A stretch of DNA of 64,000 bases from a virus. Its lineage: Duplodnaviria; Caudoviricetes. Of the stretch, positions 13,981-25,255 are shown in pieces. Position 1 is the stretch's first letter; each line of letters opens with the position of its first letter. The notes beneath the pieces were generated by a model. That model saw nothing but the letters and a program-made list of their open reading frames with translations, made no database searches and had not been told where the DNA came from. A program made the position numbers and the translations under genes. The stretch lies in IMG/VR virus record IMGVR_UViG_3300037067_027616, positions 192,001 through 256,000 of that record. The stretch is one strand, 5' to 3'.

Positions 13981-14046
13981 CTACACGACCCCCGATGGCG
14001 TCACCCGGCGCTTGGATACGACTCGTTTTGCCTTCAGTGAGAACAT
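13981..14046 (-). CDS. Leader peptide 2 MFSLKAKRVVSKRRVTPSGVV
   Basis: Purine-rich SD; codons 5-15 AAG GCA AAA CGA GTC GTA TCC AAG CGC CGG GTG. Confidence 0.85.
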   Translation of the reverse strand: MFSLKAKRVVSKRRVTPSGVV

Positions 14047-14708: not shown

Positions 14709-15464
14709 CTATTCCTTTTTATCTTCAGGTATTAAGTCTTCCTTAATAAGCGCCCGGTGCCTGACCTGGCTGTCCAAATGCCACTTTCCTTCCCTGTTCG
14801 ACATGCGTAAAACTTCACAGTTGTAGGGGTTTCTGACGGTTTCATAGTATTCGACAGACCAATGAAACCAGCGCATGAGGAAAAGTCTCATCGTGAGTCC
14901 GTGCGTGACGATGAGGCAAACCCTGGGAAAATCCGGCTTATCGAAATCTCTCCAGAGTGTGTCCATGAAGGTGGACAAGCGGTCATAGACATCAGCCCCT
15001 GATTCTCCATCGGGGATCCTGTAGAAGAACGTGCCAAACTTGTCACGTTCTTCCTCGATCTTTTTTGAAACATCGGCGTCCTTGTAGTTTCCCCAATCCT
15101 GCTCGCGCAACCGCGGGTCGAACGTTTCGCTTGCGATGTGGACATAGTATGGTTTATGGAGTAAATCTTTTATTCTTCCTGTGTGCGTGTGAATACCATC
15201 GAACAAAAGCCTCCAGACGGTATGCCACGTTTGTTTGGTCCGCTCATATGGCGAGCAATATGCGGCGATTTCCGGCGGGTCGATGCCTTTGGGGAATTCG
15301 TGAACGAGATCGTCTTTGATGTAAATGCCTGCGGTAACAGCCTGCTGACGACCGAAATCGGTGAGAGGTATCTTCCAATCAGGGACGGTCTTCAAAAGAT
15401 CCCAATTCACGTTCGCTTCAGACTGACCGTGCCTTATGAGATATATGAATTTTGGAGGAGCCAT
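14709..15464 (-). CDS. Histidine phosphatase (phosphoglycerate mutase family)
   Basis: LIRHGQS, SPYERT, LREQDWG, GES, VTHG. Confidence 0.9.
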   Translation of the reverse strand: MAPPKFIYLIRHGQSEANVNWDLLKTVPDWKIPLTDFGRQQAVTAGIYIKDDLVHEFPKGIDPPEIAAYCSPYERTKQTWHTVWRLLFDGIHTHTGRIKDLLHKPYYVHIASETFDPRLREQDWGNYKDADVSKKIEEERDKFGTFFYRIPDGESGADVYDRLSTFMDTLWRDFDKPDFPRVCLIVTHGLTMRLFLMRWFHWSVEYYETVRNPYNCEVLRMSNREGKWHLDSQVRHRALIKEDLIPEDKKE

Positions 15465-15482
15465 AGTGCCTCTTTTTTTATT

Positions 15483-15557
15483 TGGTATCCTCACCGGGAA
15501 TCGGACCCGGATCTAGAGTTTAGGAAACTCTTGTTCTGTCCGTTGAACTATGAGGAC
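15483..15557 (-). tRNA. tRNA-Arg(CCT)
   Basis: AGAGT-TTCCTAA-ACTCT; T-loop TCCGATT; ACCA end. Confidence 0.88.
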
Positions 15558-15615
15558 ATAGTTGAATATACCATTTCGTAACCCTGATTTACAGCACTTT
15601 TCGAAGACATAAATG

Positions 15616-15691
15616 TGGTGCGGCAGCCGAGACTCGAACTCGGGGCATTCAGCTTGGGAAGCTGACATTCTACCAACTGAATTACTGCCGC
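15616..15691 (-). tRNA. tRNA-Gly(CCC)
   Basis: TCAGC-TTCCCAA-GCTGA. Confidence 0.92.
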
Positions 15692-15696
15692 ATATT

Positions 15697-15771
15697 TGGA
15701 GCGCCAGCCGAGGCTCGAACTCGGGACCCCTACCATGGCAAGGTAGTATTCTACCACTGAACTACTGGCGC
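15697..15771 (-). tRNA. tRNA-Gly(GCC)
   Basis: CTACC-TTGCCAT-GGTAG; TCCA end. Confidence 0.92.
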
Positions 15772-16187
15772 TTTCTGTTTTCATCAATGATTTTGTGCTC
15801 CCGCTCCCACCCGTCCACATATGTCTGTAACTGTTTTTCCACCCAATCGTGAACTTTCTGGGAAAAATCCACTCCATATTCTTTTTTAGCCTCTTCAAAT
15901 CCGACCCGCCACGCTTCCTTCTCAATGTCCGGTGTGTAGTATTCAACAGAAGATGCAAAGTCATCTGGCATGAGAGCGTGACCCAACTCATGGAAAAATG
16001 ACGCCACCTTCAACTCATCATCCTCATAAATCCCTAAATAAATTTTGGGGTGGCAGATGTAACTTTTGTTTTCGTATTCTTCAAGACCATTGGCACTGCA
16101 GTAATCGTCTCCAGGTACGACTTGAACAACCTCATATCCGTATTTGGCGGCTACTTTTTTGAAATCGGATAGTGCCCACGAAATTAA
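15762..16187 (-). CDS. HExxH-motif hypothetical protein (start unclear)
   Basis: FFHELGH...EKEAW. Confidence 0.55.
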   Translation of the reverse strand, partial: LISWALSDFKKVAAKYGYEVVQVVPGDDYCSANGLEEYENKSYICHPKIYLGIYEDDELKVASFFHELGHALMPDDFASSVEYYTPDIEKEAWRVGFEEAKKEYGVDFSQKVHDWVEKQLQTYVDGWEREHKIIDENRKRQ

Positions 16188-16189
16188 AA

Positions 16190-16265
16190 TGGAGCGGGAG
16201 ACGAGGCTCGAACTCGCGACCTTCAGATTGGAAATCTGAGACTCTACCAACTGAGTTACTCCCGC
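16190..16265 (-). tRNA. tRNA-Gly(TCC)
   Basis: TCAGA-TTTCCAA-TCTGA; TCCA end. Confidence 0.92.
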
Positions 16266-16278
16266 GTATTTTCATATC

Positions 16279-16356
16279 TGGTACGCCTGGCGAGACTCGA
16301 ACTCGCGACCCTCAGATTAGAAGTCTGATGCTCTGATCCAGCTGAGCTACAGGCGC
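16279..16356 (-). tRNA. tRNA-Arg(TCT)
   Basis: TCAGA-CTTCTAA-TCTGA; ACCA end. Confidence 0.93.
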
Positions 16357-16361
16357 TCATG

Positions 16362-16868
16362 TTATCTCAACCCATACAAGTACAAAAGTGCCGCATACCC
16401 CGAGGGAAGTAACTGAAGAGGTTTGTCGACCTCCTTCGAGTACTTCACGGCCATCTCTAAAAAATACCGCGCGTGGAGCATCGCCTCTATCCATCTTCGC
16501 GGGTCTTTTTTAGGATCCAAGCCATCCTCCATAATTTCTTTGAACACGGAACATCGATTTTTCCAACCGTACTTGTATAGGCCTTCCAACTCCTTCAGCA
16601 CCTTGCGTGTCACAACCACCGCGGATCCAACTTTATAGGAACCGTGGTACAGCCTGTAAACTGTGTCCTCAATTTCCCAATGGCTGTTGATGTTTTCGAG
16701 AAGTTCCTCAAGTACCTTTTGTTTTTTATGGAGGTTCTTGATGAGAACGCGTTGCCCTTGGTCGTTGCTGCGCTTCTCCTTCATGGCAGCCGCGCTACTG
16801 TTGCGCAGACCTTTCTCACAGAATTTTTTGAAATCCTCGATGCTAATCTTTTTTGCTTTGTCATTCAT
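16362..16868 (-). CDS. Hypothetical protein
   Basis: 168-aa ORF (YRLYHGSYKV...LPSGYAALLYLY). Confidence 0.65.
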   Translation of the reverse strand: MNDKAKKISIEDFKKFCEKGLRNSSAAAMKEKRSNDQGQRVLIKNLHKKQKVLEELLENINSHWEIEDTVYRLYHGSYKVGSAVVVTRKVLKELEGLYKYGWKNRCSVFKEIMEDGLDPKKDPRRWIEAMLHARYFLEMAVKYSKEVDKPLQLLPSGYAALLYLYGLR

Positions 16869-17122
16869 GGAATTTTTGTTTCTCCGTGAGATTCGGAATC
16901 CATGTGCGGATCCTCGCAGAGTACAACGAATTCTCCAGTACCTTCGAGAGCCTCAAGTTCCAAATCATCGAAGTCATTCTCTTGGAAGTTCGTCCCGTCC
17001 CACCAACGGCACATGTACGTTATCCCGTGTTTTGTCACCAGTACTCCGCACACTCTGCCGTCCTGTTTTCCATCGACGATGTGTACCCTTTGGCCCGGGC
17101 TGAACTTTGATTTTACAACCAT
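16865..17122 (-). CDS. Small hypothetical protein
   Basis: 85-aa ORF with GGAG SD. Confidence 0.6.
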   Translation of the reverse strand: MVVKSKFSPGQRVHIVDGKQDGRVCGVLVTKHGITYMCRWWDGTNFQENDFDDLELEALEGTGEFVVLCEDPHMDSESHGETKIP

Positions 17123-17153
17123 GTGGCTCCCCTGTGGTGTGTGGTGTATGGTG

Positions 17154-17227
17154 TGGGCCCACCAAGAGTCGAACTTGGGACAGGCGGATTATGAGACCGC
17201 TACTCTAACCAACTGAGTTATGGGCCC
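17154..17227 (-). tRNA. tRNA with CAT anticodon, probably Ile2 (lysidine, reads ATA)
   Basis: GGGCCCA/TGGGCCC acceptor; loop CTCATAA; lacks initiator C1-A72 mismatch; Ile2 call supported by three ATA codons in leader 3. Confidence 0.8.
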
Positions 17228-17248
17228 GTTGATTCCTGCTCATACACC

Positions 17249-17277
17249 AATATACCATTCAGCGGGACACGTGTAAA
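17249..17277 (-). promoter_or_regulatory. Internal promoter-like TTTACA-17-TATATT
   Basis: Upstream of tRNA(CAT). Confidence 0.6.
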
Positions 17278-17303
17278 CTTGATACATTTGTGAAACAGGT
17301 ATG

Positions 17304-17377
17304 TAGCCCGGACGAGATTCGAACTCGTGATTTTCACAGTGAAAGTGTGATGGATTAGACCGCTACCCTACCGGGCC
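17304..17377 (-). tRNA. tRNA-Glu(TTC)
   Basis: TCACA-CTTTCAC-TGTGA. Confidence 0.9.
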
Positions 17378-17382
17378 ATACT

Positions 17383-18063
17383 TTATGCCAAATCACTTAT
17401 AAAGCCTTGATTATACCGCTTATATGATGTTCGTCTTCCGTTGGAGTGGTTCACGACCATGTCATCTCGCACCCGTATAGTACGGACCTTGTCACCCCGC
17501 ATACCACTTCCGACCTGCCCTCGCCTGGCATCATTCACGTTTCCGGTCACTTTTGACGTGAGCCTGTGGTGGATCCTCTGGCGCAACACGCTCATCGCTT
17601 GTTCCTTATTTTGGTGCTGGCTACGCTCCGATTCGCATCTCACAATAATGCCCGTCGGGATGTGCTTCACCTGTACGGCAGAATCCGTCACGTTTCGGTG
17701 TTGTCCGCCTTTTCCGGAACCGCGCGCTATTGAGATCTCTATGTCACTACACGGTATGTCCACCTTTACCCCGGGGATCTCTTCGAGGACGGCCACTGTG
17801 ATGGTGGAAGTCTGTACACGGCCGCGCTTCTCTGTCGGAGGTATCCTTTGCCACCTGTGACCGCCCGGCTCGTTCTCAAACGTTCTTGCGGCGTCTTCTC
17901 CCGATATTTTGATGCAGACGTAACCTGGTCGCATCTCCAGGACACGCATCTAATATCCCTTCAAAACGCACACCTTTCCATAAATCCTGAACTGATCTTC
18001 AACTAAAAGCTTTGCATCGTCTCCGCCTTCGGCGGCTCTGATTTCCACTATGATTGATTGCAT
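17383..18063 (-). CDS. Class I release factor, RF1-like (PxT, GGQ), lacking domain 1, with in-frame TAG at codon 38
   Basis: MQSIIVEIRAAEGGDDAKLLVEDQFRIYGKVCVLKGY-TAG(17952..17950)-MRVLE...GGHRWQRIPPTEKRGRVQTS...GKGGQHRN; GGAGG SD before ATG 18063. Confidence 0.85.
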
Positions 18064-18079
18064 GGTACCCTCCGTTATA

Positions 18080-18192
18080 AAACGCCCTGGTGTTCCCTAC
18101 GTCCGTCCTGATAGCCCGGGCATCGGGGCATAGGAACGGTAACCTTTCGGTGAGACTTGTTCGCCGAAAGAAAACTCGGTTGCACCTTTTGG
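18080..18192 (-). ncRNA. Candidate structured RNA between tRNA-Glu(CTC) and the release factor gene
   Basis: CTTTCGG/CCGAAAG and GTTCCTATG/CGTAGGGAAC stems. Confidence 0.35.
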
Positions 18193-18199
18193 CTTATAT

Positions 18200-18277
18200 T
18201 GGTAGCCCGGATGAGGTTCGAACTCATGAGTCTCCGCCTTGAGAGGGCGGTGTCCTAGCCAATTAGACGACCGGGCC
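18200..18277 (-). tRNA. tRNA-Glu(CTC)
   Basis: CCGCC-CTCTCAA-GGCGG; ACCA end. Confidence 0.93.
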
Positions 18278-18310
18278 TTACATTCAAAAGTGCTTTTGTC
18301 GTCAGCAGAC

Positions 18311-18322
18311 TGTCAAAGATCA
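18311..18322 (-). promoter_or_regulatory. boxA-like element TGATCTTTGACA
   Basis: 10/12 match to rrn boxA; same position as the 7786..7797 copy. Confidence 0.55.
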
Positions 18323-18325
18323 ACG

Positions 18326-18358
18326 AAAAAACCCCGCCAGGCTTGGCCTGACGGGGTT
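18326..18358 (-). terminator. Attenuator terminator 3 (Glu/Gly/Ile2/Arg-AGR operon)
   Basis: ACCCCGTCAGGC-CAA-GCCTGGCGGGGT followed by TTTTT. Confidence 0.88.
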
Positions 18359-18381
18359 TGTGTATAAGTACAATACTCCCG

Positions 18382-18441
18382 TCAGGTGGGTATTCTTCCC
18401 TCCCTACCTTCTTCAGCTATTCTGACGGTTGCGTTTATCAT
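18382..18441 (-). CDS. Leader peptide 3 MINATVRIAEEGREGRIPT (near-leaderless mRNA)
   Basis: ATG 9 nt after the -10 box; codons 7-17 AGA ATA GCT GAA GAA GGT AGG GAG GGA AGA ATA. Confidence 0.85.
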   Translation of the reverse strand: MINATVRIAEEGREGRIPT

Positions 18442-18450
18442 AGGATATTA

Positions 18451-18479
18451 AATATAACACAAAAAAACGGTGTTGTCAA
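18451..18479 (-). promoter_or_regulatory. Sigma70-type promoter TTGACA-17-TATATT for leader 3
   Basis: -35 at 18479..18474; -10 at 18456..18451. Confidence 0.85.
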
Positions 18480-18949
18480 CCCTGTTCTTTTTTAGCGAGT
18501 CTCATGTGTTCTATCGAACTGGTCATGGTGTCTTTACCGCCCATCTCCGTTAGAAGGTACAAAAGAAGATTTTTCAAACGGAATTCGACATCCTCTTTCA
18601 TCTCGCGGACACCTTTTTTATACTTCTCCACAGACATCTTCAACTTTGGTACTTTGGCGGCCACGCTGTCGAGTATCCTCTCGAATTGGTCGAGAGCATT
18701 TTTAATGCTGTCTATTGGAACTTGGGCCTTGTCCCTATGTTCCATAATGACATCGTCTAAAGAAGGGGTATTCAAATCCCGGGGACTTGGGATAACATTG
18801 TACGGATGCTTTGCAGGATACACGGTGTTTGGAGAGTAAGCAGATTCGATGGTGTTAGATATCACATCGACATCCTCTGCCTCCTTGATCATTCCTAAAA
18901 ACTCGAGTCGTTCAGCAATGTCATCAAATGTCGCGATTACTTCTTTCAT
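18476..18949 (-). CDS. Hypothetical protein with FDDIAERLEFLGMIKEAEDVDVISNTI motif
   Basis: 157-aa ORF; motif shared with 211..771. Confidence 0.7.
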   Translation of the reverse strand: MKEVIATFDDIAERLEFLGMIKEAEDVDVISNTIESAYSPNTVYPAKHPYNVIPSPRDLNTPSLDDVIMEHRDKAQVPIDSIKNALDQFERILDSVAAKVPKLKMSVEKYKKGVREMKEDVEFRLKNLLLYLLTEMGGKDTMTSSIEHMRLAKKEQG

Positions 18950-18956
18950 ACACCCC

Positions 18957-19862
18957 TCATTTTAGATACGTGTAATCTACCTGCTTGGACAGTTGTTCGC
19001 CTATCTCGATGTATTGGCTCATGTATTTGACCCCGTCCATGATGTCCATTTTAGGGTCAAGGTCGTATTTTTCAAGTCTTTGAAAGGTAAAATCTTGATA
19101 TTGCCCGGCTATTCCGGACAATATTTCTTCGTTAGTTCTGTCACATTGTCTACGTGCAAGTCCACCGTCCATGGGACTCATGAAATAGTAGAGTTGCCGG
19201 AGAGCATTGTAACTAGATGCCTCTTTATAGGACATGGAGAACGGGGACTCCCCGCATCCGAGGGACAACATGTGTACCTGTTCGTTTTTGAGCCAATCCA
19301 AGCGGCAGGCCTCTACGTAGGCCTCTACGGTCGGGCTGCTCATGTTACCGGTTCCTCCGTCAAGCCACACAGCGTTTCCTGCTTTGTCTTTGATGGATCC
19401 AAAATAATAAGGCGCGGCGTAGCTCCTGGACAAGGCTTCAAGTACAGTAAGTTCACCGTCTTTTTCTTCCCAAGACTTGAAGAAGTGTGTCCTTCCGTCC
19501 ACCATATTCACGCTGGTGCAGACAAAACGTGTTTCGCAATTCTTCATCCTGAACTCTCCGCCGACGTGATAACGTATGAGTTCGTCTAACGGCGTGCGGC
19601 TGTATTTATTTCCGATGAACGGTATGTGCGTTTGTGGAGTGAACACTTTAGGTATGGCCGACAGCAACAACGGGTAGAACGTTTCCATTCGGAGGGCGCC
19701 TGTGGATAGCACTCCGCCGATTATTGCACCCACGGAAGATCCCCAAACAAGGTCGAAAACCTCGTGTATTTCCTTGCCGAGGACGCGAACGATGTTGGAG
19801 AGTATCGTGGCAGCAATGGGACCCTTGGCGCCGCCGCCGTCTATTACCAAAATGCGCTTCAT
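18957..19862 (-). CDS. Patatin-like phospholipase
   Basis: DGGGAKG, GSSVG, AAPYYF, DGG. Confidence 0.9.
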   Translation of the reverse strand: MKRILVIDGGGAKGPIAATILSNIVRVLGKEIHEVFDLVWGSSVGAIIGGVLSTGALRMETFYPLLLSAIPKVFTPQTHIPFIGNKYSRTPLDELIRYHVGGEFRMKNCETRFVCTSVNMVDGRTHFFKSWEEKDGELTVLEALSRSYAAPYYFGSIKDKAGNAVWLDGGTGNMSSPTVEAYVEACRLDWLKNEQVHMLSLGCGESPFSMSYKEASSYNALRQLYYFMSPMDGGLARRQCDRTNEEILSGIAGQYQDFTFQRLEKYDLDPKMDIMDGVKYMSQYIEIGEQLSKQVDYTYLK

Positions 19863-19898
19863 ACCGAGTTAACGGTATGAAGAGAGCATTATGGTTTG

Positions 19899-20798
19899 TT
19901 AGGACGGGTCAAGACCGTTGATGTCGCTTCTTTCGATCGACAACGGGTTTTTTCTTTTGTATCCAGAAGTCTCGTGCCTTTTAACGACCTTATGATCTTC
20001 ATAGGATGCACGGAGTTTCAAAAATTCATTGTAAGACTCCGGTCTTCCATCGAACTTCAAAAAATCGTCCCAGGCGAACATGTCTTCGTCTTTGCAGAGC
20101 CATATTTTGAGGATGCGGTCGACTTCATCATAGGATTGTGCCCCGAACTGCTCCAAATCGGAGGATGTGATTCCGAGCCCGTCTGTAGGAACAGCGTGGA
20201 CACACTGCTCAAGTGCGGTTGCGGCATCCTCGGCGTGTTCGGTGCGTAGTGATTGCACGAGATACTTCGAAAGATCGTAAACCTCCGTCTTCCACAGATA
20301 TTGTATCATGCCATAGTCGCCGACGTCACCATGAAGCGTCCAGAACCCCAACTCATATTCGGAAAGATTGTCGGTAGACAGAACCAATCCTTTGTGTTTG
20401 CTTGCAAGGTCAAACAGTCTTATCATGCGGAGGCGCGCTTTCAAATTTCCCCGGCGAACTTTTCGCTCATGTGTGAGGTCACCAGGTTCATCGTCTTCCA
20501 TGAGTATTTTTACCATCGATGCAAAGTCGTTGCCAAAGTCGGCTTCTTTGAAGCTTGTGCAAAAGGCCTTTCCTACGGCCGCCGCGCGTTGTATTTCTTC
20601 ACTTTTATTCGTGGCTATGGTGATGCTTCTGCCGATGAGTTCCATACCATGATAGTCGCATACAGGTTTGGCCAATGCTGCGCACAAGGCACTGTCCAAT
20701 CCCCCGGACACACCGAGAACCAAAGAATTCAAATGGTTGGATGAAACATATTCCGACAGCGATTTCCGTAGACTCTCAACAACTTTAAGATGATCCAT
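19899..20798 (-). CDS. nadE: NH3-dependent NAD+ synthetase
   Basis: LGVSGGLDS, GNLKARLRM, GFWTLHGD, KTEVY, PTDGL. Confidence 0.93.
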   Translation of the reverse strand: MDHLKVVESLRKSLSEYVSSNHLNSLVLGVSGGLDSALCAALAKPVCDYHGMELIGRSITIATNKSEEIQRAAAVGKAFCTSFKEADFGNDFASMVKILMEDDEPGDLTHERKVRRGNLKARLRMIRLFDLASKHKGLVLSTDNLSEYELGFWTLHGDVGDYGMIQYLWKTEVYDLSKYLVQSLRTEHAEDAATALEQCVHAVPTDGLGITSSDLEQFGAQSYDEVDRILKIWLCKDEDMFAWDDFLKFDGRPESYNEFLKLRASYEDHKVVKRHETSGYKRKNPLSIERSDINGLDPS

Positions 20799-20818
20799 TT
20801 TATGTCCTTCCTGCAGGG

Positions 20819-22321
20819 TCAGTCAATGAGGATGCATTGATTTATCATATTCTGTCGTTTTTCGAAAAGATTTGGACTCAAGCCAACTTTAACCGTGTGA
20901 GGCTTGTCGATTCTCTTTTGTGTCCAATGTAACATGGCAATCTGCGACCGCACTCGTGCACGGACATCTTCAAGGGTGTCCATGAGATAGCCTTTATTTT
21001 GTGTCTGCCGCGGTTGAACATTCCAATGGCTTTCTATTTCCGTACTCTTATTGCCATCGTCCTGGTGTACAAACTTGTGTATCTCTTTAAGGTTTTCTTC
21101 TTTTCCATATATGAGGATCCCCTGCAGGAACCCGTCCTTGTCCACCAACGCGGCGGATCTGTTGGAACCGGGTATGCTTGTTTTGACCGGATTGTCCCGT
21201 GCCAATTTGATAACGCTCCGCTCGACATATCCTGCTTGCACAGAAGTAAGTTTGGCAACGCCGCCGATGCTCGGTTGATCCCAACATGTACCGGGTTTCG
21301 TTCCGCAAGCCCATACAAGGTTTTTGAGTATTTCATCAGGCTTGTATCCGAAACGCGCTGCGTTATCGCTTATCTGCTCGCGGATGGCCTGTATGGAATA
21401 TTCATCGAGGTCGTTCGTCATATAAATTTTGACATCTTGCAACCCGGCGGATTGCAACATCCGGTATCCTTCCATGGCCAAGTAGGCCAAGTCGCCACCA
21501 TCGAGGCGTATTCCCATCGTTCCTTTTGACCTGCGTATCTCATCGATGTTCTTGCTGAACGCCTTGATGGCATTTGGTATACCGGACGACAACGTGTCGA
21601 CAGTGTCCACAAGAAGTACAGGACGGCCAGGGTTGCATTGCAACCACAAGTCAAACGCTTTGAATTCATTGCCAAAACTCTGGATCCACTCGTGACCCAT
21701 GGTGCCCACGGTCGGGATATCAAACCACGATCTTATTTCTGAATTGCTGCTGATCGTGGCTCCGGCAAGATACGAATACAACGTGGTGCGCAAACAATCT
21801 TGCGCGCGCCGGCGTGCGAACTCCATAACCGATCCGACTTCCGTGGCGTTGACCACCCTCCGCCATTTCGTCATGGCGAGGCTCGGGTAATTCACGCACT
21901 CGAGGAGCATACCTTCCGCTATACGTACATCGAGAAGCGACCCCTCCAAGACAACCGCAGGCTCCCCCCCGAACATGAGGGAACCTTCGGGAAGGGCGTT
22001 TACGGTAACATTGACAGTCTTCCTCTCGATAAGGTACTTGATGAAGTCCTCACGGTATCCTTGCCCATGCAATATGTCACCTACATCGATGGAGAATTTA
22101 TACTCCGCCAGTAAGCGTTGGAACTCTGTAATTCCCCCCAAGATGGCGTAAGATCCTTCGAATGGCGCCTTTCGGATGAAGTACGTCTTCGATGCGGTAA
22201 GGTTATGCCTTTGCAGAAAGAAGTCCGACTGTGCCATCCGAGGATAGTAGTCATCCCACGGGCAAAGGCTTTTGCGAGCCATCGCGCTGAGTCCTTGGTA
22301 CAGATTCTTCTTGTCATGCAT
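20819..22321 (-). CDS. pncB: Nicotinate phosphoribosyltransferase
   Basis: MEFARRRAQ, GTMGHEW, LLVDT, GIRLDGGDL, TNDLDE, GGVAKL. Confidence 0.85.
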   Translation of the reverse strand: MHDKKNLYQGLSAMARKSLCPWDDYYPRMAQSDFFLQRHNLTASKTYFIRKAPFEGSYAILGGITEFQRLLAEYKFSIDVGDILHGQGYREDFIKYLIERKTVNVTVNALPEGSLMFGGEPAVVLEGSLLDVRIAEGMLLECVNYPSLAMTKWRRVVNATEVGSVMEFARRRAQDCLRTTLYSYLAGATISSNSEIRSWFDIPTVGTMGHEWIQSFGNEFKAFDLWLQCNPGRPVLLVDTVDTLSSGIPNAIKAFSKNIDEIRRSKGTMGIRLDGGDLAYLAMEGYRMLQSAGLQDVKIYMTNDLDEYSIQAIREQISDNAARFGYKPDEILKNLVWACGTKPGTCWDQPSIGGVAKLTSVQAGYVERSVIKLARDNPVKTSIPGSNRSAALVDKDGFLQGILIYGKEENLKEIHKFVHQDDGNKSTEIESHWNVQPRQTQNKGYLMDTLEDVRARVRSQIAMLHWTQKRIDKPHTVKVGLSPNLFEKRQNMINQCILID

Positions 22322-22335
22322 TTTAACAGCGCTCC

Positions 22336-22662
22336 CTATTTGGAGTTAGGAACTTCTTGGCACGATGCGAACCGCGCCTCGGGGTTTTTCGTAAGGACCT
22401 TCGGCATGAATTCGATCTCCGGATTTTCCACTTGCTCTAATGACTTGAAAAAGAATGGCCTGAGCACGAACCCATCTACTTCTTTCTCAAACGCCGACAA
22501 TCCCTCTTTTAAAGCAGAGTCATCGTAGAAGACGTTTTTTAAGAAGAACTTAAACTCTTCCATTGTCTTATTCTTCTCAACAACGTCCATGCCCGATGTC
22601 GGATGTACCCAACATTGCACTAGATAAGTTCTTTCTCGTTGTCCTTCGCTGTTTTCAGACAT
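22336..22662 (-). CDS. Hypothetical protein
   Basis: ORF behind a GTGACA-17-TATATT promoter-like site. Confidence 0.55.
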   Translation of the reverse strand: MSENSEGQRERTYLVQCWVHPTSGMDVVEKNKTMEEFKFFLKNVFYDDSALKEGLSAFEKEVDGFVLRPFFFKSLEQVENPEIEFMPKVLTKNPEARFASCQEVPNSK

Positions 22663-22734
22663 ATCGTTTCGGCCCTCGGTTGTTGTAGAGAACCTACCCT
22701 CCCATGGATAATATACTTTTCTGAACACGGTTTG

Positions 22735-24963
22735 TCACACCTTACTTGAGTGATAGTCTGTAATCACTTGATATATAACATCTTCCACATATTCACGATC
22801 TGGAGAGTGGGGCAATTTTGATGCCTTGTACAACTCTCCGAGTTGCTTGTCCATATCGTGTGCGTATTGCTCCACTTTGTCGTAAGACCATGCGCCATCG
22901 CGTATGGACTTCAGTTCTTCAGCATCAATGTTCGTACGGTCGACGTTCACTTTTCCTGCTTCAAGTATCTCCGCTCCCATGCGGCAAAGTCTGACAAGAT
23001 GCATAGCGTGCTTGCTGTTACCGTGGAAAGCGACATGTCCATTCCTGCGGGTGACCAACACACCATTTGGTACGGAAAAGCACACTATATTCTGGCCAAC
23101 CACCGGTATTTTTCTTACTGCACAGCGCCTCATAATCCTGTGATGTTTTTGGGAATTTTTGTCGATGTGCACATGGAACATTTTTGCCTTTGGGTAATGC
23201 TCATTGTCGCTGTCGTACGGGCCATACAAGGATGTTTCCCAACCACAAGTAACCGCCAATTCTTGCACATCATCGGCAAGACTTTTCACGGAAGTGTAGT
23301 AAATCACCGACTTTTTGGACGTGTTCCTAATGGTACCATCCCCGAGTACCATAGCGTCAAAAAGAATTTCTTTTTCGTGCTTTGATAGTCCAAAAACCCA
23401 CCGCGGTATCTTTTTTGTTGTTTTCTCGCCACAATCGGAAAGAAACCTTTGCGCCAACTCTTTCCCGTACACAATGAGAACTATTTCTTGGATCGAAGTA
23501 GAGCGAAATAGGTTGGGACCGCGTTCATAAGAATAGAGTCCTGTAGGGGCTTCCGTGCTACCGTGAAATCTGGACATGTGCCAATGAAGCCTACCACCGG
23601 ACTTCTGGCTGATGCGTACGTTTTTGGGATTGCTTTTACATTTTCCCAGGCACCCATCAGACAAGTACCACCCCATCAACGACAAGTATTGCCTGCGCGT
23701 GAGTTTTACATCGGGAAAATTGTTGATTGTACCATATGTTTTTGTTGCTGGGTCAATGGTGGCTAGAACCTCAAAACATTCTGGTAAACAAGAAATTTCC
23801 TCAAGTACAAAATCTGAAGAGATTCTATTTTTTCTTGACACAGGCTTGAACAGCATTCGGTGATTTGGTGTCACCCGCACATCTATGTGGTTACCGGTGA
23901 GCTGGTACATAGATCCGGTGAAAGTCCCTTCAAATCTATCTACAAAATGTTGATATTCTAATTGACCTCTACGACCGGATTCTTTATACCGACCCGGTTT
24001 ACCTGTAAGGCGTTTTGACTGGAAAAGGTACTTTTTATGAAGTATCCCCCTCACTGTGGCAAGTCGATCTTCGATTGACACGTCCCTATATTTCTTCCAA
24101 CCAGAATCTGTCAAAAACTCGGTGTCGTCCGCATAACAATCAAACCCGAACTTTTCCTCCAAAGCTGCCCGTTTCTTGTTTCTTGATTTTGACCAATTTT
24201 GGTACTGTTCCCACTCCGTCTTTTTGTTGAGATAAACGACCTCTTTGCTGGCCATGTCGTAGTACTCTTCTTTGAGGTACTTCGTACCTAAAGCTTGAAA
24301 AGCATGTGCTTGTGCGGAAATTCCCATCTGGAGCCACTCCAAGGACAACTTGCGTTGATCCGGGTCGAGGAACCGTGCAAACAAAGGAATAACCCAATCA
24401 CCGTAGATTTGGTCGAGTTCAACCAAAAAGTCATGTCGGAGATCCTCCGGGATAGCCTCAATGGCCGCGTAGCACACGGCTTTGAGTTGAGAAGTCGGAA
24501 ACAAGGACTGCTCTGGAAGGCCCATTTCCGTCCGTGTAGGGAAGGATTTTGGGGGGTCAAGCAAAAACTTCCTGTGAACTTTTATCCTGTTAAGTTGTGC
24601 GATAGCGTACCCCGAGAATGTGTATCGGCATTTCTTTGATAGAAATTTTTCACGGGATAACAAAATTCTCTCCCACCACGGGCTTGTTTTCTTTATGCAC
24701 CTATCCGGCGCCCACAGTAAATCGAGCATGTTTGGGTTGTTTTCAAGTAGCAATGACGTAGCTTTGTGGATAGCATAGATTTTTCTGTCCACGCCCCCAA
24801 AGTCAGAGAACTCCTCAACATTTTTGAAACCCAAAAAATACTCTGGCCCAGGGATCATCACACCTGTCCTATCCTCATCAGATTCGGGTGTATTTGTACC
24901 GTAGGCCTGCGAACCCGTAACGGTTTCAAATATGGTGTGATTCAACGCGTATTGCTGTTCCAT
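22735..24963 (-). CDS. Pol-beta superfamily nucleotidyltransferase containing an intein
   Basis: GSQAYGTNTPESDEDRTG, NPNMLDLL, KHAMHLVRL. Confidence 0.85.
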   Translation of the reverse strand: MEQQYALNHTIFETVTGSQAYGTNTPESDEDRTGVMIPGPEYFLGFKNVEEFSDFGGVDRKIYAIHKATSLLLENNPNMLDLLWAPDRCIKKTSPWWERILLSREKFLSKKCRYTFSGYAIAQLNRIKVHRKFLLDPPKSFPTRTEMGLPEQSLFPTSQLKAVCYAAIEAIPEDLRHDFLVELDQIYGDWVIPLFARFLDPDQRKLSLEWLQMGISAQAHAFQALGTKYLKEEYYDMASKEVVYLNKKTEWEQYQNWSKSRNKKRAALEEKFGFDCYADDTEFLTDSGWKKYRDVSIEDRLATVRGILHKKYLFQSKRLTGKPGRYKESGRRGQLEYQHFVDRFEGTFTGSMYQLTGNHIDVRVTPNHRMLFKPVSRKNRISSDFVLEEISCLPECFEVLATIDPATKTYGTINNFPDVKLTRRQYLSLMGWYLSDGCLGKCKSNPKNVRISQKSGGRLHWHMSRFHGSTEAPTGLYSYERGPNLFRSTSIQEIVLIVYGKELAQRFLSDCGEKTTKKIPRWVFGLSKHEKEILFDAMVLGDGTIRNTSKKSVIYYTSVKSLADDVQELAVTCGWETSLYGPYDSDNEHYPKAKMFHVHIDKNSQKHHRIMRRCAVRKIPVVGQNIVCFSVPNGVLVTRRNGHVAFHGNSKHAMHLVRLCRMGAEILEAGKVNVDRTNIDAEELKSIRDGAWSYDKVEQYAHDMDKQLGELYKASKLPHSPDREYVEDVIYQVITDYHSSKV
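23017..24138 (-). mobile_element. Intein (~374 aa) with LAGLIDADG homing endonuclease
   Basis: FGFD/CYADDTEFLT; VTPNHRM block B; GWYLSDG and MVLGDG; ends HGN/S. Confidence 0.9.
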
Positions 24964-25255
24964 GTTTTTCCCTCCAGAGGAAATATACCATTTCACTCTG
25001 CAAAATTATCAATCAAAATTGCGTGATGATGTTCAAAGAAACAGGTTTAATCTAAACCCTCCGAGGCATTAGATTAGATAGGAACGAGTTGTGACTAATG
25101 GCCGATACTCAATTGATACGTGGATTCTGTTGTCCCAGAACATTTGGCTCAAAATAAAAGTTACCAAGGATGGCGGTCCCTATGAGTGAAAAACGTCCCA
25201 CCTTGCTCATAGAAAAATTTCAAAAGAGATTCGAAAATACGGGGGCCACCTGGAG

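Follow-up and report, generated by a model that had tools for sequence, protein, structure and literature searches.

In a 64,000-nucleotide stretch of viral DNA (Duplodnaviria; Caudoviricetes; bases 192001–256000 of IMG/VR record IMGVR_UViG_3300037067_027616, called the window in the following), eight tRNA genes on the minus strand are preceded by a promoter, a 19-codon open reading frame (ORF), L3, and a strong predicted terminator. We suggest that this phage tRNA operon is controlled by L3 through ribosome-mediated (leader-peptide) attenuation of transcription, of the type known from trp and his, and we assign this reading a probability of roughly 0.72. An attenuator at this place had been proposed from the letters of the DNA alone (the original prediction). 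In our computational follow-up this reading held on the order of promoter, ORF, and terminator, on the frame-specific codons, on the position of the stop codon within a regulatory helix, on folds with a masked ribosome, on the four sister units of this genome, and on two orthologues.

The leader and its alternative helices

The elements of the leader are the following.

18451..18479, minus strand: sigma-70-type promoter, TTGACA, 17 nt, TATATT, with TG before the −10 box (11/12 consensus match)
18382..18441, minus strand: leader ORF L3, consisting of ATG, 18 sense codons, and TGA; the regulatory codons are mainly codons 7–17
18422..18428, minus strand: region 1, CCGTCAG, partner of region 2 when ribosome-free (7 bp with CTGACGG at 18385–18379)
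18378..18386, minus strand: region 2, CCTGACGGG, which includes the TGA stop of the leader and is invariant in both orthologues
18346..18359, minus strand: region 3, the 5′ arm of the terminator, with the core CCCGTCAGG (18355–18347), the exact reverse complement of region 2
18323..18342, minus strand: region 4, the 3′ arm of the terminator with six U and a tail

Read along the minus strand, the promoter is followed after 9 nt by the L3 ORF and then by the terminator, which ends 45 nt before the first tRNA gene, tRNA-Glu(CTC). The promoter consensus is found at the head of each of the five tRNA units and in front of dozens of other genes of this phage, and both hexamers are invariant in two orthologous units, L132 and L143, which we recovered from metagenome contigs using the neighboring proteins as anchors. 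The ORF ends with the TGA at 18384–18382 and contains ATA three times, AGA and GAA twice each, and AGG, GAG, GGT, and GGA once each. Alternative starts of L3 were considered and rejected: the ATG is preceded at a distance of 9 nt by an in-frame TAA, and the only other candidate, a TTG, is located 2 nt past GGGAG, which is too close.

The terminator (18359–18326) has a 14-bp GC-rich stem with a predicted stability of −25.3 to −25.4 kcal/mol and is followed by U6. Together with the upstream regions three mutually exclusive helices can be drawn, namely 1:2, 2:3, and 3:4. The coordinates and codon counts of the leader given in the original prediction could all be reproduced, and so could exactly the pairing of CCGTCAG (18428–18422) with CTGACGG and, over 9 bp, the perfect pairing of 18386–18378 with 18355–18347. 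The chance expectation for a complement of a 7-mer within ~40 nt is ~0.002.

For the fold test the L3 transcript was cut after the terminator 5′ arm, and the nucleotides covered by a ribosome were masked. With the A site placed at codons 5–14 the 2:3 antiterminator is predicted to be kept with −21 to −24 kcal/mol. It is lost with the ribosome at codon 17 (−2.3 kcal/mol) and at the stop codon; this loss at the end of the ORF follows from the TGA being located inside region 2. A transcript that ends with region 2 is predicted to fold into the 1:2 hairpin (−15.1 kcal/mol). The other four units of the genome are predicted to switch likewise, and the modeled fold behavior is the classical three-state logic.

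In the mechanism that we propose, the translation of the ORF, the actual termination, and the direction of the response are deduced from the anatomy, the codon match, the folds, the conservation, and the recurrence of the unit. The host RNA polymerase would start at the consensus promoter and a ribosome would translate the 19-codon leader. A ribosome that is slow at the central codons AGA, ATA, GAA, GGT, AGG, and GAG, which would be read by the downstream Arg-TCT, Ile2-type CAT, Glu-TTC, Gly-GCC, Arg-CCT, and Glu-CTC tRNAs, respectively, would cover region 1 and leave region 2 free. Free region 2 would pair with region 3, and the polymerase would read on into the tRNA genes and the passenger genes. 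With fast decoding the ribosome would reach the TGA and occlude region 2, so that the terminator could form and transcription would stop at the U6 tract. If no ribosome is present, the 1:2 helix would form first and termination would again be permitted. The net effect would be a negative feedback: the tRNAs would be transcribed when the combined supply of charged host and phage tRNAs is short and would be switched off when it is sufficient.

The same anatomy could also be read in a simpler way, with the terminator as a constitutive insulator or as the end of the upstream operon, the tRNAs transcribed from internal promoters, and the ORF untranslated and without a role. The leader lacks a Shine–Dalgarno (SD) sequence, promoter-like sites are found in front of the CAT and Arg-CCT tRNAs, and there is no strong terminator between the upstream gene and the L3 promoter, all of which would fit to an insulator. 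However, the promoter is located upstream of the terminator and not downstream of it, and within the limits of our promoter scan no own promoter was detected for the Glu(CTC), Glu(TTC), Arg(TCT), and Gly tRNAs. Moreover, an insulator leaves unexplained the frame-specific codons, the length of the ORF, the position of its stop in region 2, the presence of an SD sequence in one orthologue, and the five-fold repetition of the design. We regard this explanation as quite improbable.

Beside the attenuator itself, a TTGACAG motif is found 8–10 nt after the U tract of the terminators of L3 (18278–18318, minus strand) and of the sister leader L1 (7782–7800, minus strand). Between the L3 motif and the tRNA there are ~35 nt, with a third copy of CTGACG, that are nearly unchanged in L132. 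TTGACA at this position was rejected as a promoter, as there is no usable −10 box at 16–18 nt. The segment may be a processing site or, as in the full-length fold, a long-range partner of region 1.

Codons of the leaders and tRNAs of their operons

We scored by standard wobble rules which of the 18 sense codons following the ATG can be read by the eight downstream tRNAs. This is the case for 11 codons, compared to a background of 0.203, the share of these codons (20.3%) in the long ORFs of the phage, which gives a binomial P of 1.8e-4, or 4e-3 when ATA is disregarded. Ten of the 11 matching codons are located within codons 7–17, and for seven of the eight tRNAs a readable codon is present in L3. 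Only one of the 3087 genomic ATG ORFs of 15–46 codons reaches this share; this one is expected to be L3 itself, as the scan gave the count without printing the identity. Shifting the frame abolishes the match (5/17 and 4/17 in the two other frames). The leader had been described as a rare-codon leader, which was not borne out for the phage itself: ATA makes up 40% of the Ile codons, and AGA and AGG together 37% of the Arg codons, in the ORFs of the phage. The organizing rule of the leader is instead that it uses the codons which are read by the tRNAs of its own operon.

Taken for a single unit these statistics are moderate (P ~2e-4 with ATA included), and one could argue for a match by chance or composition, that is, for a purine-rich short ORF located by coincidence between a promoter and a terminator. 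This would however be extremely improbable given the single ORF among 3087, the background level of both other frames, and the behavior of all five units considered together (see below), as well as the conservation in orthologues and the repetition of the design in unrelated phages.

The frame specificity also bears on the idea that the leader RNA senses the tRNAs directly, in a T-box-like manner with the triplets as specifiers and without being translated. Indeed, triplets complementary to the anticodons and a pair of antiterminator and terminator are present, and T-box riboswitches resemble L3 in that a tRNA-dependent choice between these two structures is made upstream of translation-related genes. 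A T-box, however, lacks an ORF and makes direct contact with a single uncharged tRNA, whereas the matching triplets of L3 are found in a single frame extending from an ATG to a stop codon. The T-box covariance model did not match the L3 region at the gathering score or at E ≤ 1, and no other tRNA-binding family of Rfam matched even at E ≤ 1. There is no evident element for binding of the T-loop or the discriminator, one RNA would have to bind seven tRNAs, and SD-like sequences precede the four sister leaders and one orthologous leader. Direct sensing thus appears very improbable.

Each of the five tRNA blocks of the tRNA-rich region is preceded by a unit of this design, three of these units being inside the window and two just outside of it. 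Each unit comprises a promoter, a short ORF, a strong terminator, and the tRNA genes; a segment located at the stop codon or close to it is the complement of the terminator 5′ arm. The blocks headed by the five units contain 46 tRNAs; a CTA suppressor further along the strand, the 47th tRNA, was left out. The leaders match their own blocks with 11/18, 11/20, 11/25, 16/22, and 24/39 codons and the other blocks with 0–8 codons. The true assignment of leaders to blocks is the best of 120 permutations (73 matches, the next best having 56) with a summed log10 P of −20.7, and the matches are again restricted to the reading frame (73/124 vs 26/119 and 24/119). One leader of 40 codons contains the exact cognate codon of all of its 20 tRNAs, which did not occur in 200,000 simulations. 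In the 42-kb tRNA region (170–212 kb) the terminators of the five attenuator units are the five strongest of this strand.

With the same hardware the operon could belong to a general stress response, in which case the signal would be amino acid starvation or general translation stress, such as the level of charged tRNA, antibiotics, or a shortage of ribosomes, and not the supply of the individual tRNA species. It is established knowledge that classical attenuators respond to charged tRNA and hence also depend on amino acids and synthetases. In addition, the operon carries protein genes, including those of a release factor and a histidine phosphatase, and a tRNA array of Anabaena is induced by general translational stress (PMC8421152). 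On the other hand, the five leaders each sample the codons of their own block down to the synonymous choice, which a general stress sensor would not need, and a starvation for amino acids is not relieved by additional tRNA. We consider a general stress sensor unlikely.

The orthologous units support the codon-reading attenuator. The identity of the anchoring neighbor proteins is ~77% (L132) and ~72% (L143). Both units have kept the 19-codon ORF, ATA at codon 8, the run GAA GGT AGG GAG GGA, regions 1–4, and the same set of tRNAs, while the promoter spacer, the spacer between regions 2 and 3, and the terminator loop have diverged. Each of them folds into the same three states, with 1:2 hairpins of −23.8 and −22.7 kcal/mol that are longer than the one in the window; the units were folded one by one, since aligning the three of them with MAFFT introduces gaps into the 5′ arm. 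The leader of L132 has exactly one codon per tRNA for seven tRNAs. Differences between the orthologues often exchange one sensing codon for another, for example, GAA/AGA at codon 10 and AGA/AGG at codon 7. If each codon samples one tRNA species, strict conservation of the nucleotide sequence is to be expected, since even a synonymous exchange would direct the sensor to a different tRNA. Orthologues of the neighboring leader L2 were also found. An exact search of viral contigs with the conserved 16-mer yielded only chance matches in unrelated contexts.

From a second metagenome (run X2) we obtained a strain of ~97% identity which shows no differences in 18288–18500 compared to ~2.4% in the flanking genes. 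In this strain 223 nt at 18064–18288, including tRNA-Glu(CTC), are replaced by 105 other letters, and the adjoining leader is unchanged. A search for RNA runs containing the stretch returned none.

Using a detector for a terminator, a short ORF, an antiterminator, and downstream tRNAs, we also found such units in other phages. The unrelated AT-rich 318-kb phage G002 has three of them, with 36 matches on the diagonal vs 25 for the next best permutation; one of its units has the run AGA GAG GAG AGA GAA in front of Glu-TTC and Arg-TCT, and another one matches with 18/29 codons (P = 1.6e-6). Further codon-matched units are present in phage G001. In G004 and G005, two very large phages with big tRNA arrays, the detector revealed nothing convincing. 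The design is therefore common, but not universal. In the cultured Caulobacter phage phiCbK the terminators predicted in the record are located between short ORFs and tRNA blocks. Two of these ORFs match their own blocks with 23/44 and 11/31 codons and the block of each other with 1/44 and 3/31, and one of them starts 7 nt past a −10-like box. The hypothetical phiCbK protein gp083 (45 amino acids; L148, 49540–49677) appears to be the leader ORF of a Pro/Lys/Leu/Ala/Ser tRNA block.

Several observations weigh against the proposed attenuator, in the first place the initiation of translation. The 9-nt gap TAATATCCT that separates the −10 box TATATT (ending at 18451) from the ATG (beginning at 18441) contains no SD sequence, as the original prediction had noted; initiation of L3 hinges thus on the position of the transcription start. 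The near-leaderless initiation proposed on this basis is a fair reading of the gap and would apply equally to L132, which also has 9 nt and no SD sequence, but it does not extend to L143 with an 18-nt gap after the −10 box and GGAGG 5 nt before the ATG. It is hence the translation of the ORF that appears to be conserved, whereas the mode of initiation varies. Second, a ribosome-free RNA cut before region 4 thermodynamically prefers 2:3 over 1:2, so that termination without translation would rest on the kinetics of folding. Third, probably only codons 7–14 are productive, as a stall at codon 17 removes the antiterminator and codons 15–16 are nearer to region 2. Fourth, Gly-CCC has no codon in L3 nor in any of three leaders. 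Furthermore, the regulatory block AGGGAGGGA is also SD-like, and its strict conservation could therefore carry a second constraint; the U tracts of the terminators are interrupted in the orthologues. Finally, the CAT and Arg-CCT tRNAs may have a basal supply outside of the control by the attenuator, since they possess promoter-like sites of their own.

Comparison with known systems and possible role

The enterobacterial leaders trpL, hisL, thrL, ilvL (ilvGMEDA), leuL, and pheL likewise consist of a promoter, a codon-enriched short ORF, the helices 1:2, 2:3, and 3:4, and an intrinsic terminator. As in L3, their stop codon is placed such that a terminating ribosome blocks region 2, and the ilv and thr leaders sample several amino acids as L3 does. 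There is no sequence homology between L3 and these leaders; the best match of the leader region in Rfam is the His operon leader, which is matched over its full length, but weakly (21 bits vs a threshold of 49 bits, E = 0.14). Unlike the attenuators of amino acid operons, L3 is viral, controls tRNA genes and not biosynthetic enzymes, and samples specific synonymous codons, approximately one per tRNA species of the operon. As the codons of the leader sample the tRNA species of the operon itself, the product of L3 control would feed back directly on the quantity that is sensed.

A gene of the translation apparatus is controlled by leader-peptide attenuation in the case of pheST, whose leader pheM senses charged tRNA. 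In contrast to L3, pheM controls a synthetase, responds to a single amino acid, and belongs to a host gene, and the tRNA is not the regulated product. The idea of a pheA-like leader before the E. coli tRNA-Phe genes was discarded, as the upstream region of pheV shows only a promoter.

Two further systems share single aspects with L3. The trn array of Anabaena, the closest analogue in function, is an accessory tRNA array that is normally off and becomes induced under impaired translation; its control is attributed to direct repeats at the promoter and a putative repressor (PMC8421152). Such control is not codon-specific. The words attenuator, leader, and terminator do not appear in the text of that study (PMC8421152). 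In mycobacteria, leaderless short ORFs with polycysteine stretches attenuate the downstream operon, and are a precedent for a sensor ORF at or near the 5′ end of a transcript (bioRxiv 10.1101/834739). These leaders differ from L3 in being bacterial, in sensing cysteine, and in controlling cysteine-related protein genes (bioRxiv 10.1101/834739).

Phage-encoded tRNAs have been explained by compensation of codon usage, by the loss of host tRNAs during infection, and by the escape from tRNA-cleaving defenses (e.g., PMC11555353). All of these explanations predict that the need for the phage tRNAs varies with the host and with time, and a leader which reads the decoding speed of the codons served by its operon would provide a self-adjusting tRNA supply. 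On the wider proposal of a general class of such attenuators (see below), the phage could detect a mismatch with the tRNA pool of a new host and replace exactly the missing species; the loss of host tRNAs to anticodon nuclease defenses or to the host shut-off by the phage would be detected likewise. L3 would then be a sensor for AGA, AGG, AUA, GAA, GAG, and GGA/GGU. In E. coli the tRNA supply for AGA, AGG, AUA, and GGA is poor. In addition, the codons of a leader could serve as an independent sequence-based aid for ambiguous tRNAs, as here where ATA points to an Ile2-type CAT tRNA, and such leaders might be used in synthetic biology as compact codon-specific sensors of tRNA availability.

In full-text searches of the literature we found no account of tRNA genes, bacterial or phage, being controlled by leader-peptide attenuation. 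To our knowledge L3 would be, if true, the first known case of textbook attenuation that regulates tRNA genes themselves. We see about even odds for the wider proposal that such codon-inventory attenuators form a general, unpublished regulatory class in tRNA-rich phages, in which each block is switched on only when its codons stall the ribosomes. The occurrence in phiCbK would make this idea directly testable.

Genes of the operon and its surroundings

The whole record comprises 466,729 bp with 49% G+C and holds 49 tRNA genes and a tmRNA; 47 of the tRNAs are located on the minus strand inside 36 kb. The phage is present at groundwater or landfill sites. Downstream of tRNA-Glu(CTC) the L3 operon continues with a gene of a release factor 1 (RF1)-like protein, Glu(TTC), the CAT tRNA, two small ORFs, Arg(TCT), Gly(TCC), one ORF, Gly(GCC), Gly(CCC), and Arg(CCT). 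The tRNA content stated in the original prediction was reproduced, with ARAGORN and Rfam in agreement. The genes and sites are listed below.

18200..18277, minus strand: tRNA-Glu (CTC), found by ARAGORN and Rfam
17383..18063, minus strand: RF1-like gene without domain 1, with an in-frame TAG at codon 38 (17952–17950); the profile match spans the TAG
17303..17377, minus strand: tRNA-Glu (TTC), found by ARAGORN and Rfam
17249..17277, minus strand: internal promoter-like site TTTACA, 17 nt, TATATT, with TG, directly upstream of the CAT tRNA
17153..17227, minus strand: tRNA with CAT anticodon, assigned to the Ile2 (lysidine) type from the discriminators of its acceptor stem
16279..16356, minus strand: tRNA-Arg (TCT), found by ARAGORN and Rfam
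16190..16265, minus strand: tRNA-Gly (TCC), found by ARAGORN and Rfam
15697..15771, minus strand: tRNA-Gly (GCC), found by ARAGORN and Rfam
15616..15691, minus strand: tRNA-Gly (CCC), the only tRNA of the cluster without a readable codon in L3
15483..15557, minus strand: tRNA-Arg (CCT), with a TG-extended −10-like TATATT in front

A site comparable to the internal promoter-like site (ATGACA, 17 nt, TATATT) is also found upstream of the CAT tRNA of L143. A megablast search of 15000–19000 against the phage database gave no match.

From the exclusive use of ATA for Ile in the leader it had been argued that the CAT tRNA is Ile2 and not Met. Sequence features of the tRNA support an assignment to the Ile2 (lysidine) type. 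It has G3:C70, C4:G69, C5:G68, and A73, and according to Silva et al. (PMC1635315) G3/C70 marks tRNA-Ile(CAT) vs both Met types, which have C3:G70, and C4:G69 and C5:G68 are frequent in tRNA-Ile(CAT). The discriminator pairs of the CAT tRNA of L143 are identical. Elimination leads to the same assignment, as one of the two other CAT tRNAs of the phage is initiator-like (1:72 mismatch, A11:T24) and the other one elongator-Met-like (C3:G70, C11:G24). Both of these are located in a block whose leader has internal ATG codons, whereas L3 has three ATA and no internal ATG. The CAT tRNA had no match in E. coli genomes.

A search of the phage with PF01171 did not reveal a TilS, and a host TilS would thus be needed for the lysidine modification. 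The PP-loop protein encoded two genes upstream was rejected as a TilS candidate, since it is an NAD synthase. A tRNA-Ile(TAT) is encoded in another block (G000:C1:181176–181254), so that ATA would be served by two routes, one of them independent of the host TilS. The initiator-like CAT tRNA (G000:C1:186277–186369, minus strand) has 93 nt, a U1–U72 mismatch, and an unusually long variable region.

In the RF1-like protein the PCRF and RF-1 domains are present and positions 1–112 of the model, corresponding to domain 1, are missing. It scores 214 bits with prfA and 142 bits with prfB, both below the equivalog cut-offs. The in-frame TAG is directly followed by an ATG; L132 has a TGA at the same codon of its gene (4038–4718), and many phage homologues have in-frame stops or a change of frame in the same N-terminal part. 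The stop could mean a programmed read-through, an autoregulation, or a protein made in two pieces. The original prediction had named the release factor along with the tRNAs under the leader. We do not count it as part of the sensing logic, since L3 ends in TGA and the protein resembles RF1, and since the corresponding operon of L143 has no such gene. Given the L143 operon without this gene, we regard it as a lineage-specific passenger.

The phage uses the standard genetic code, under which ORFs of at least 150 amino acids cover 81% of the genome. A genome-wide recoding of TAG was rejected, as freeing TAG gains no more than freeing other stop codons. A tRNA with CTA anticodon, i.e., an amber suppressor, is nevertheless encoded (3861–3937, minus strand), and the neighboring leader L2 ends in TAG (13981–14046, minus strand). 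If this TAG were read through, the ribosome would proceed to a TGA located in the terminator 5′ arm, which might by itself prevent termination.

Upstream of the unit a 157-amino-acid protein without relatives in IMG/VR is encoded. The genes upstream of the unit at 18957–24996 on the minus strand code for a patatin-like phospholipase, the NAD synthase mentioned above, a nicotinate phosphoribosyltransferase-like protein, and a nucleotidyltransferase of the RlaP family with a LAGLIDADG insert. The set of NAD salvage genes among them may serve to counter NAD-depleting defenses.

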